DNA of 64,000 bases from Candidatus Heimdallarchaeum endolithica. GTDB lineage: Archaea > Asgardarchaeota > Heimdallarchaeia > Heimdallarchaeales > Heimdallarchaeaceae. The notes under the pieces were generated by a model. The model had not been told where the DNA came from. It saw nothing but the letters and a program-made list of their open reading frames with translations, and did not search any database. This document shows, in pieces, positions 41,464-43,741 of the stretch (position 1 is its first letter; every line of letters begins with the position of its first letter). The translations under genes and the position numbers were made by a program. The stretch spans positions 1,856,001 to 1,920,000 of the forward strand of contig CP084167.1 in assembly GCA_021513715.1 (NCBI GenBank). The letters run 5' to 3'.

Positions 41464-42906
41464 TTATTTCTTGATACCCAAGAAACCAGCTAATGCAGGA
41501 ACTGTTTCTGCTACTTGCTCACTGGCAAAAATCTCATAATATTGCTTCAAGATACCGACAGTAAGCAAGATACCCGTACCCGTCCCTAATGCGCCTAGAA
41601 AGTCAGCAAAGGCTGCTAATACACCTATAAAGAATCCGCCTAACCAAGCTGCAGTAGGAATATAGCGATCCAAGTATTTTTCGACAATACGAGGGTTACG
41701 ACGAAAACCAGGGATTTGCATATCAGCATCAAGTAATTGCTTGGCAACATTACGAGAACTCATACCTGCAGTATCAATCCAAATCCTAGAAAAGATACCA
41801 CAGAGGATAACCATCAAAATAAAGTACGTAACAGCTTGCCAAGGTTGTTCAACTATTTGCTCCGGACCATATGGGGCAGTAGTAAAGGAAGCTAAACCAT
41901 TGATTGGCCGGCTTTGCTGTGTATCACCTATAGTATCCCATTCACCAAAAAAGGTGACCAAGAATCCACGAATGCCAGGATCGTTGGAATCCCATTTATT
42001 ATCAAGAAGGTTACTGATAAAGTAAATATTGGCAAATAGGGCACTAACTAAAATAACTGGAATGTTAGAGGTATAGAGAAATTTAATAGGATAACGAGCA
42101 GGCATCTTATATTGACTGTGTTGAACAGGAATCTCGATGCGAATACCATCAACATACATAACCATAGCAAAAACAACAATGGTAGCTACCAATCCAATAA
42201 TGTCAGGAGTACGACCAGTACGAGTGATAGATTGCATAACAGTATTTTCATCACGAATAATGCTCTGGAAAAAGGCGATAACAGCGCCACGAGCTAAACC
42301 ATACTGATCAGGGGTGAGATTGAACATACCATCAACAATGTTAAAACTAACACTAGTGGCAATAAAGAGAGAAATACCACTACCTAAACCATAACCCTTC
42401 TGGATGACTTCATCCATCATCATGATAACAAAACCAGCAGCAACAAGCTGAACTAAAAAAAGAGTCTTTTGAGCGAAAACTAAATCCTCACCATAAGCAC
42501 CACCAAGAATATAAGCAAGAGCCTCAAAAAGAAGCATAAGAATAGACATAATCTTTTGAGCACCAGTGTACAAAGCACGCTCTTCAGGGTTACTAAAATC
42601 AACCTTGATAATTTGGGAACCAACGAGGAGTTGAAAAATTAAGCCAGCAGTAACGATAGGTCCAATACCTAGTTCTGCTAATGTTCCTCTTTGCGATGCT
42701 AATATCGCTCTCATTGCATAGAATGGGTCTGTTCCTTGTGTTTCTTTAAATCCCACTAGTGGTATGTTTAGCATTGCCAGATATAGTATCAATATTCCGA
42801 ATGTCCAAAATAATTTTGCTTTAAACGACAGTTTTTTATCTGGTCTTTTTATCTCGAATGTAAAACGTTGAAATGGTTTGAACATAGTTAGGAATTTACT
42901 TGCCAC
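41464..42906 (-). CDS. secY: Protein translocase SecY/Sec61alpha
   Basis: GTLAELGIGPIVTAG, GYGLGSGISLFIA, YPIKFLYTSNIPVIL, IPGFR, GTGILL. Confidence 0.97.
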   Translation of the reverse strand: MASKFLTMFKPFQRFTFEIKRPDKKLSFKAKLFWTFGILILYLAMLNIPLVGFKETQGTDPFYAMRAILASQRGTLAELGIGPIVTAGLIFQLLVGSQIIKVDFSNPEERALYTGAQKIMSILMLLFEALAYILGGAYGEDLVFAQKTLFLVQLVAAGFVIMMMDEVIQKGYGLGSGISLFIATSVSFNIVDGMFNLTPDQYGLARGAVIAFFQSIIRDENTVMQSITRTGRTPDIIGLVATIVVFAMVMYVDGIRIEIPVQHSQYKMPARYPIKFLYTSNIPVILVSALFANIYFISNLLDNKWDSNDPGIRGFLVTFFGEWDTIGDTQQSRPINGLASFTTAPYGPEQIVEQPWQAVTYFILMVILCGIFSRIWIDTAGMSSRNVAKQLLDADMQIPGFRRNPRIVEKYLDRYIPTAAWLGGFFIGVLAAFADFLGALGTGTGILLTVGILKQYYEIFASEQVAETVPALAGFLGIKK

Positions 42907-43741
42907 TTTTTACTCCTCTTTTTTTCTATTTCTTTCTCTGTCTTTTCTGAATTCTCGTACCTTTAAAAGCCTTTTCTCTTTGTTCTTATTTTTTACTTTT
43001 TTTTTATTTTTTCTTCATTTCTATTTTTATCGTCTCCCATATTCTCATGTACATTTTGATTGTTAGATTTATTATTTTTTCATTTTTCTTCATTTTCATG
43101 TCTTGTATGATACTTATTTTTTTAGATTTTATAGCTCCTGGGTTGTTTACATAGTCACTTGCATCAAGGTAATCATCTTTCATTCCAAAGATGTTATCCA
43201 GAACAATATAGTAATTTTTTACAAATTCTAGTGCTTTTTCATATCCCATTAGGCTGTATTGGTTCATCGGGTATATTACTTTTTCTTCTTCTGTAAACGC
43301 CTTTTTCCATTCTCTGACATTTTTCCTTGCATTATCTTGAGGTAATCGATAGAATCTTGCTGCTGGTTTTTCTTCTATTGCTTGTGCTGTACATTGTATT
43401 TTGAACACAATTATATTTTCTGTTCCTAAATCGTTTATAGTTAGTTTTAATTTTTCATTTTCAGTTTCTGCTGCTTTTACGTATGCTAGATTTATTATTG
43501 CATTCAACATTTCTATTGTTATTCCTTTTTCTTCGTTTGTCTTTCCGAATATACTATCTGGTGAGAACGAATATCTTTTAAGGTTATATAATTTTGAAAA
43601 ATCTACTTTTATCAATCCTTTTTCTTCTATTATTTCTTTTTCCATTTTTTTTATTATATTCAGTATATTTTTTTCTATTTCTTCGTATTCGAAGTTAAAT
43701 CCTGGTATATCTTTTATTTTATTTTTCAGATCTTTAGTTGT
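42670..43741 (-). repeat. Diverged direct repeat, copy A (large-gene 3' end + spacer + secY codons 1-79)
   Basis: Homologous to 45376-46448; identity is highest at the secY junction and falls with distance. Confidence 0.9.
43004..43741 (-). pseudogene. 5'-truncated paralog of the C-terminus of the 45726..49509 large protein
   Basis: Shares LAYVKAAE, IVFKIQC, IEEKPAAR, MNQYSLMGY, LDNIFG, YLDAS, LTIKMYMRIW. Homology continues upstream of the ATG at 43645 (TTKDLK..KDIPGF) and stops abruptly near 43741. Confidence 0.8.

Follow-up and report, generated by a model that had tools for sequence, protein, structure and literature searches.

What makes the choice of codons change from one codon to the next within a single essential gene? 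The question is raised by secY of Candidatus Heimdallarchaeum endolithica, located in a 64,000-nt stretch of the chromosome (1,856,001-1,920,000; hereafter the window, whose coordinates are used below), where codons ending in A give way to codons ending in T at the edge of inserted DNA. An initial annotation, made from the letters alone, attributed the change to a process centred on the site and offered four candidates: repeated breakage and resynthesis, local replication initiation, a directional translocase cue and selection on oligo-T terminators.

A codon switch at the end of a direct repeat

The features that define the switch are the following.

41464..42906, minus strand: secY/Sec61alpha, 480 aa, with Pfam SecY and plug domains
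41464..42669, minus strand: left arm, the coding strand leaving the focus; T/C-rich, A-poor, fading toward polB
42669..42670, minus strand: codon 79|80; skew change point, repeat end and island target
50314..51457, minus strand: rpl30 and rps5, host genes of the approaching arm, A-ending

The switch was found where it had been described, at 42670/42669, with GCA GAA CTA before the junction and GGT ATT GGA CCT after it. Four-fold sites change from A24 T2 G7 C0 over codons 1–79 to A1 T37 G0 C4 over codons 80–160 (Fisher p=3e-14), and the bias weakens toward the 3' end of the gene, also as annotated, to A10 T19 at codons 401–480. The change-point posterior is 0.55 at 79|80 and sums to ~0.99 over codons 76–83, coinciding with the end of a direct repeat of 266 bp and 94% identity whose copies lie at 42670-42935 and 45376-45641. 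In a scan of the closed genome (3,326,783 bp, ending in tRNA-Gly(CCC)), secY ranked first among four-fold A/T switches (S=63; shuffle maximum 26) and second by a whole-codon score (Z=10.8; shuffle maximum ~5). The change point sits in the most conserved stretch of the gene; codons 72–86 come first in nucleotide conservation among order-level relatives and within the top 5% in a second test. No tRNA and no credible Rfam match was present at the junction, and a promoter and terminator scan with a bacterial model remained at chance level. A hidden hairpin was considered and rejected (DNA fold z=-1.5).

The composition of the left arm is alike in strains with an empty site, and polB has an A/(A+T) of 0.41. 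The polB gene (37331-41341) contains an intein holding a LAGLIDADG-like domain. On the approaching side, the reported A-ending lean of rpl30 (A40/T9) and rps5 (A59/T17) was recovered and is similar in insert-free strains, but rpl15, which is nearer to the junction, has no such lean (A34/T26). The description of each strand as T-poor approaching the site and T-rich leaving it is correct as a pattern, but the two strands provide a single fact viewed from two sides.

A giant-gene island inserted in secY

The rpl15 and secY genes are adjacent in H. aukensis and separated by ~7 kb in the window. From rpl15, the gap holds a giant-gene remnant, an orphan secY 5' piece, a leucine-rich repeat (LRR) gene, a nuclease scrap, a second giant-gene remnant and the 5' copy fused to secY, listed here in coordinate order.

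42670..42975, minus strand: island-borne replacement segment, ~70 nt of rpl15-secY spacer plus 79 codons, A-ending; delimited by alignment to the H. aukensis spacer
43004..43645, minus strand: C-terminal remnant of an aloposon giant gene, A40/T8; 99.3% nucleotide identity to the end of the giant-gene/secY junction region of contig L164
43859..43960, plus strand: short remnant of an aloposon PD-(D/E)XK (Cas4-like) nuclease gene; a weak match in the expected place (E=1.6e-4, intact nuclease as query)
44028..45281, plus strand: LRR cargo gene (Pfam LRR) at the left end of the island
45358..45612, minus strand: orphan secY 5' piece, 79 codons plus 5 foreign ones; left junction at 45376/45375
45726..49819, minus strand: older giant-gene remnant (ORFs 45726-49082 and 49180-49509; homology to ~49773), cut off just after rpl15

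The second flip announced at 45376 is present, with A61/T22 in the LRR gene and A25/T2 in the orphan secY piece, on its own coding strand. The secY gene is a mosaic in which an island-type 5' end (codons 1–79) is joined to a 3' part that runs on into the host flank. Its first 228 nt match the L164 copy at 227/228 positions and the empty-site alleles at 202–207/228. The orphan piece is identical to the empty-site alleles over its first 79 aa, and its nucleotides are closer to the fused copy. The remnant at 43004..43645 shares 34% aa identity with the giant gene at 2207504-2223484 of the same genome (G000), and the older remnant shares 33% with the C-terminus of a 5326-aa giant and 65% with the L164 giant. 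Position 49819 is read as a deletion end because giant-gene homology runs to ~49773; for the same reason, transposon-like TGTTC...GAACA ends at this position were rejected.

The junction had been proposed as an integration site, and two contigs of related strains show the island inserted in secY. In L164, a 5335-aa giant gene is followed by the replacement segment, with the variant 5' end of the window, which runs straight into 3' secY. In L161, rpl15 is followed by a native secY 5' piece truncated at codon 78 and then by the same LRR end as in the window, where this left junction is 9 nt longer. A further contig from the same MAG as L164 (L162) holds rpl15 and the native 5' piece up to the contig end, and we infer that L162 and L164 are the two ends of one element, on separate contigs. 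From these gene orders, an aloposon-type island targets secY near codon 78–79, bringing a replacement 5' end, and the window carries two decayed copies of it. No circle junction appeared in the assembled contigs of the sequencing runs, a negative that carries no weight. The L164 giant (L164:1-9903) is ~80–99% identical to the HeimV2 giant (G000:2207504-2223484) N-terminally and ~35% identical over the last ~1300 aa. The swapped C-terminal module lies beside the target segment, and its PD-(D/E)XK-like motif is degenerate in the copy that the window carries; a polymorphic-toxin tip and a targeting nuclease are both conceivable roles.

The aloposons of Ca. Heimdallarchaeum were described as giant-gene islands with a target just downstream of the giant gene, and with tRNA targets only; skew, secY and Sec61 go unmentioned (Wu et al. 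2022, PMC8813620). Extended Data Fig. 7a of that paper (PMC8813620) mentions truncated giant-gene fragments in a region that is probably the one analysed here. The giant gene of 3,000–6,000 aa, Otus/Ephialtes-type, which marks an aloposon (PMC8813620), is present here as remnants and as the full 5335-aa gene in L164. The secY island differs from the published aloposons (PMC8813620) in that its target, codon ~78–79 of secY, lies inside an essential protein gene, of which the island supplies the 5' end, and not at a tRNA gene. Aloposons carry a ParA ATPase, an HTH protein and a PDDEXK_1/Cas4-like nuclease; the four-gene module with a MinD/ParA ATPase found upstream of giants is missing from the window remnants, which keep a nuclease scrap. 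The secY island is best filed as a putative aloposon-derived variant with a protein-gene target.

Elements such as SXT/R391 in prfC and e14 in icd insert in a conserved gene, bring a replacement end and rely on a tyrosine integrase and a precise core. The secY island shares with these the element-borne replacement of a disrupted gene end. It differs in that the aloposons of this genome yielded no integrase and in that the left junctions of the window and L161 are not the same. The only match to the tyrosine recombinase family PF00589 in the whole genome, at 29,735, is far from any aloposon; this negative holds for tyrosine recombinases in this genome, the L164 element being in view at its secY end. 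To our knowledge, no kb-scale flanking skew accompanies SXT/R391- or e14-type elements.

Several other island ends were observed. At the tRNA-Asn aloposon (G000:2352059-2352250, 2390390-2390610; L178), the native tRNA is truncated, and an intact, divergent tRNA-Asn, along with its upstream region, is supplied by the island in inverted orientation. At the end of HeimV2 (L001:8657-8808), the 3' end of ibrB occurs in tandem 39-nt copies, and ibrB has A56/T1 at four-fold sites. Two short ORF remnants (G000:1606532-1606840 and 1920432-1920764; 43% aa identity to one another) lie beside tRNA-Tyr and tRNA-Ile, both foci, and possibly represent a second island family.

The secY switch without the island

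The initial annotation held that foreign origin alone does not explain the switch and named secY of relatives lacking the insert as a check. The check upheld the statement. The switch is kept in H. aukensis, which is insert-free with rpl15 adjoining secY (A20/T3 to A2/T31), in L096/L160, a metagenomic strain whose spacer is empty and whose sequence is 97% identical to the window, and, in the same region of secY, in insert-free L167. In these strains it is blurrier: A/G-ending codons run on to ~codon 85, and the change point spreads over ~codons 75–90. Island-linked and empty alleles differ at 6–8 of codons 80–91, including M91F. The sharp switch therefore stands for the island-bearing allele and not for the empty-site strains. 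Near-codon sharpness is a property of the island-linked allele, and the edge in the window is sharp because this allele joins an A-rich end to the T-rich arm.

The secY focus persists without the island and is lineage-specific. In one related species (L165) it is displaced into the rpl15-secY spacer, in another (L157; 89% aa identity) it is absent, and secY of 16 family-level and 10 order-level relatives has no such bias. Some family members have a second, divergent secY with 41–45% aa identity (G017:C68:76916-78202; G013:C54; G015:C209).

Foci of a single polarity across the genome

The secY site had been singled out as special, a view that did not survive the genome-wide scan, which turned up no fewer than 20 strong foci, secY included. 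Every one of the 20 switches with |Z|>=7 shows A-richness to the left and T-richness to the right along the plus strand, such that strands are purine-rich toward the focus and pyrimidine-rich away from it, fading by ~6 kb. This two-armed skew of one polarity, kept without the insert, agrees with the proposal of a site-centred process. Many foci coincide with tRNA genes, though only with some of these, and others fall within conserved genes. Left and right flanks differ by >=0.3 at 14 of 38 tRNA loci, against 1.5% of random places, with none reversed, so that not every tRNA is a focus in this genome. At tRNA-Gly-CCC, the HeimV1 site, a single side could be measured and its skew is weak. H. aukensis has flips at mostly the same tRNAs, and in-gene foci at ileS, EF2, thermosome, actin, PPDK, hypD and rps13 are also common to both species. 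The hypD focus recurs in further genera of the same family, three of whose genomes have tRNA foci of lesser strength; at six tRNA loci of a genome belonging to a different family there was none.

Along the leaving strand, ln(T/A) falls from ~1.6 within 1 kb to ~0.8 at 2–3 kb, 0.2 at 5–6 kb and ~0 by 8–15 kb, with similar decay for genes of either orientation. The base preference on this strand is T ~ C, then G, then A, roughly additive, and the gain of T is independent of neighbouring bases. Encoded proteins change accordingly, with serine at 9.6% on leaving and 3.7% on approaching strands and lysine at 6% and 13%; this shift was counted in favour of a non-adaptive force because it is expected of one. 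No orphan gene pieces were found at the other in-gene foci of this genome, and the shorter members of the ileS and EF2 clusters do not end at the foci. Within the window, rps13 (9337-9819, at ~9481) has a second, weaker in-gene focus common to H. aukensis, and 59671-64000 forms the left arm of a tRNA-Ile focus, the tRNA lying just past the window, with valS T-ending and the next gene A-ending.

Divergence and exchange tracts beside the foci

Divergence was compared at four-fold sites between two species, H. endolithica and H. aukensis. Divergence on one side was <=0.10 at 11 of 19 foci, against 13% at random (binomial p=6e-6), although this low divergence is partly regional (flanks 0.255, near 0.19) and foci are non-independent samples. 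The left-right contrast at foci exceeded random (p=0.006). An excess of exchange tracts and of tract ends, by which a recombination hotspot is recognized, is accordingly present in this two-species comparison, in part as a regional effect. A clear tract end at a focus was seen in ileS. This mosaic gene (G000:1824283-1827441) nearly matches its H. aukensis counterpart up to codon ~545 and differs strongly from it thereafter, amino acids included; another strain (L181) has an insertion near codon 995 of ileS. A conserved-anchor test on seven genes gave a weak signal (nucleotide p=0.035, protein p=0.16), with actin and hypD failing.

Pooled synonymous divergence is lower near foci on average, on which ground pure hypermutation was first rejected; it was readmitted as a candidate because divergence beside the foci is bimodal. 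In divergence-matched classes on the leaving strand, A>T, A>C and G>T pairings are ~2x background, and A>G and C>T are not raised. The pairwise values lie between the expectations of mutation bias and of fixation bias (conversion or selection), which this comparison cannot separate. Polarised changes at the strain level are scarce and run both ways (12 A lost, 7 gained). Genome-wide between the two species, A/T pairings are the commonest four-fold difference (0.125, against 0.07 per transition class), an excess consistent with NucS-type repair removing transitions. A Y-family polymerase and NucS are encoded in the genome.

Recurrent breakage and recombination as the proposed source of the skew

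The same flip in island-free strains most likely makes the switch a footprint of repeated breakage and recombination and not of foreign DNA. We give an even chance to the reading that secY codon ~79 belongs to a set of a few dozen fixed foci of putative repeated breakage or strand invasion with repair by homologous recombination. This reading builds on a two-armed geometry that is independent of the island and of gene direction, on the position of the island target and on the link to low-divergence tracts. The chromosome would be broken or strand-invaded again and again at fixed foci, with each 3' end invading a homolog, either the sister copy or DNA of a related strain, and priming outward synthesis over a few kb. 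In D-loop and break-induced replication (BIR) synthesis the new strand is transiently single-stranded, and the strand running 5' to 3' away from the focus would be this newly made strand. It would lose purines by depurination with A/G inserted opposite, or by biased resolution of heteroduplex mismatches. The doubling of A>T, A>C and G>T would fit depurination of a transient single strand with purine insertion; biased mismatch resolution may also produce it. The same events would swap flanking tracts between species, and aloposons would enter and leave via their host-homologous end.

Of the four mechanisms offered initially, repeated breakage and resynthesis is the best fit, given the polarity, the exchange tracts and the switch without insert. 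Against it stand the shifted focus in L165, its absence from L157 and the mixed strain-level changes. Two narrower mechanisms were rejected. EndoMS strongly prefers G/T, G/G and T/T mismatches (PMC4838380), and a conversion bias due to EndoMS only does not reproduce the gain of C and the loss of G. Mutagenesis by a diversity-generating retroelement (DGR) or other reverse transcriptase was set aside as no PF00078 match exists in the closed genome; the T-rich arm has no second copy, so there is no pair of template and variable repeats.

Causation may run the other way, although we consider it unlikely: aloposon-like elements would cut the empty target in a homing-like manner, with repeated cutting and co-conversion writing the skew and secY codons 80–91 recoded against re-cutting. 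Aloposon genes or remnants lie at secY, tRNA-Pro(GGG), Gly, Asn and Lys, the 2437.5-kb site and the ibrB end, all of them foci. The aloposon 378-aa core gene, whose protein has no atlas match, was found in only the two Heimdallarchaeum genomes of the 31 searched, where the skew is strongest. The allelic differences at codons 80–91 and the PD-(D/E)XK-like motif of the swapped giant module point the same way. However, strong foci at tRNA-Met, Ser, Val-TAC and Val-GAC and in ileS, EF2 and hypD have no aloposon remnant, hypD and weaker tRNA foci occur in family members without matches to the core-gene queries used, and Cas4-like nucleases are usually exonucleases. The coincidence of change points with integration sites, named as a check, holds at secY and at several foci with aloposon remnants, but not at many strong ones.

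The second rival, also improbable, takes the foci as secondary sites of replication initiation or restart, for example R-loop-primed at strong transcription units, where a different, biased polymerase copies the first few kb. It would account for the two-armed symmetry, the independence of gene direction, the excess of T over A that leaving strands share with the leading strand of the whole genome, and the preference for tRNA, rRNA-adjacent and housekeeping loci. Normal forks, however, give a skew of 0.02–0.04 with G>C, against ~0.35 with C>G at the foci; the arms are gone by 6–8 kb with no slope to the next focus, and neither exchange tracts nor island targets are predicted. The likely origin lies at a chromosome skew switch near 2.15–2.2 Mb, with orc1/cdc6 at 2,150,139, and the nearest orc1/cdc6 is ~250 kb from the secY focus. 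Local replication initiation, as first suggested, therefore fits poorly with a chromosome skew of opposite GC sign and with arms that fade so soon.

Selection on strand composition, whether for U-rich terminating RNA from strong promoters, R-loop control or a translocase cue, is less probable still. Roughly additive base preferences and the lower average synonymous divergence near foci would suit it. Against it, the gain of T does not depend on neighbouring bases, bias is similar in genes transcribed away from and toward the focus, and the focus shifts or vanishes among close relatives. T5 and T6 runs number 120 and 46, against 122.6 and 50.5 in synonymous shuffles, T4 runs being slightly above (365 against 336). 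The absence of context dependence and of a T5/T6 excess leaves oligo-T terminators unsupported, and no shared motif for a directional translocase cue was seen. Last and very improbable, a simple mosaic of an A-rich foreign 5' end and a host gene with expression-optimised T-ending codons accounts for the sharpness only, the 5' end being island-borne and the edge its boundary, and, as a complete account, is refuted by the A-rich 5' part that empty-site strains also have, values of 0.36–0.56 in ribosomal-protein genes away from foci, unbiased secY in the family- and order-level relatives and the mirrored bias of opposite-strand neighbours.

Relation to known skew systems

The foci share with GRINS (Nivina et al. 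2021, PMC8256042) an intense local skew that changes codons and amino acids; GRINS are linked to gene conversion by a mechanism that is unknown. GRINS are duplicated segments of >500 bp with mostly positively correlated GC and TA skew (PMC8256042), whereas the arms of the foci are single-copy, two-armed around a point, pair T with C and decay with distance. The duplication that defines GRINS (>500 bp, >80% identity) was not found at secY, where ~270–310 bp are duplicated and the T-rich arm is single-copy. Replication origins (oriC; eukaryotic N-domains) resemble the foci in an upward T-A jump of fixed polarity, but the GC skew of the foci is opposite to the origin skew of this genome, and their range is ~6 kb and not origin to terminus.

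Mammalian meiotic break hotspots are reportedly purine-rich 5' and pyrimidine-rich 3' of the initiation site over a few kb (a finding attributed to Smagulova and colleagues, 2011). The foci of Heimdallarchaeum would share this polarity and are much stronger, prokaryotic and without a demonstrated programmed break enzyme. We propose, tentatively and at well below even chance, that Heimdallarchaeum makes putative recurrent, position-specific breaks at tRNA and conserved protein genes, which would start interstrain recombination as a counterpart of meiotic hotspots, leave the purine/pyrimidine footprint and serve as landing sites of integrase-less giant-gene islands.

Overall, the locus combines a recombination-associated strand bias with a gene-replacing island and does not pass the tests that define GRINS, integrase islands, origins or DGRs. 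The literature searched, of incomplete coverage, held nothing relevant on skew at hotspots or archaeal tRNA genes, and the skew is undescribed there. The empty-site controls, the secY target with a fuller island, the displacement of the focus in a sister lineage and the association with exchange tracts are new.

To the tRNA targets of aloposons, the secY island adds one inside a protein gene, and it suggests how islands without a detected integrase move. If recurrent breakage and recombination at fixed foci is correct, codon-usage, horizontal-transfer and phylogenetic analyses of Asgard genes can be misled, since a non-adaptive force would be strong enough to alter both the codons and the amino-acid content of essential genes. 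Silent-site skew would then be a sequence-readable map of the starts of recombination or repair synthesis in a close prokaryotic relative of eukaryotes.
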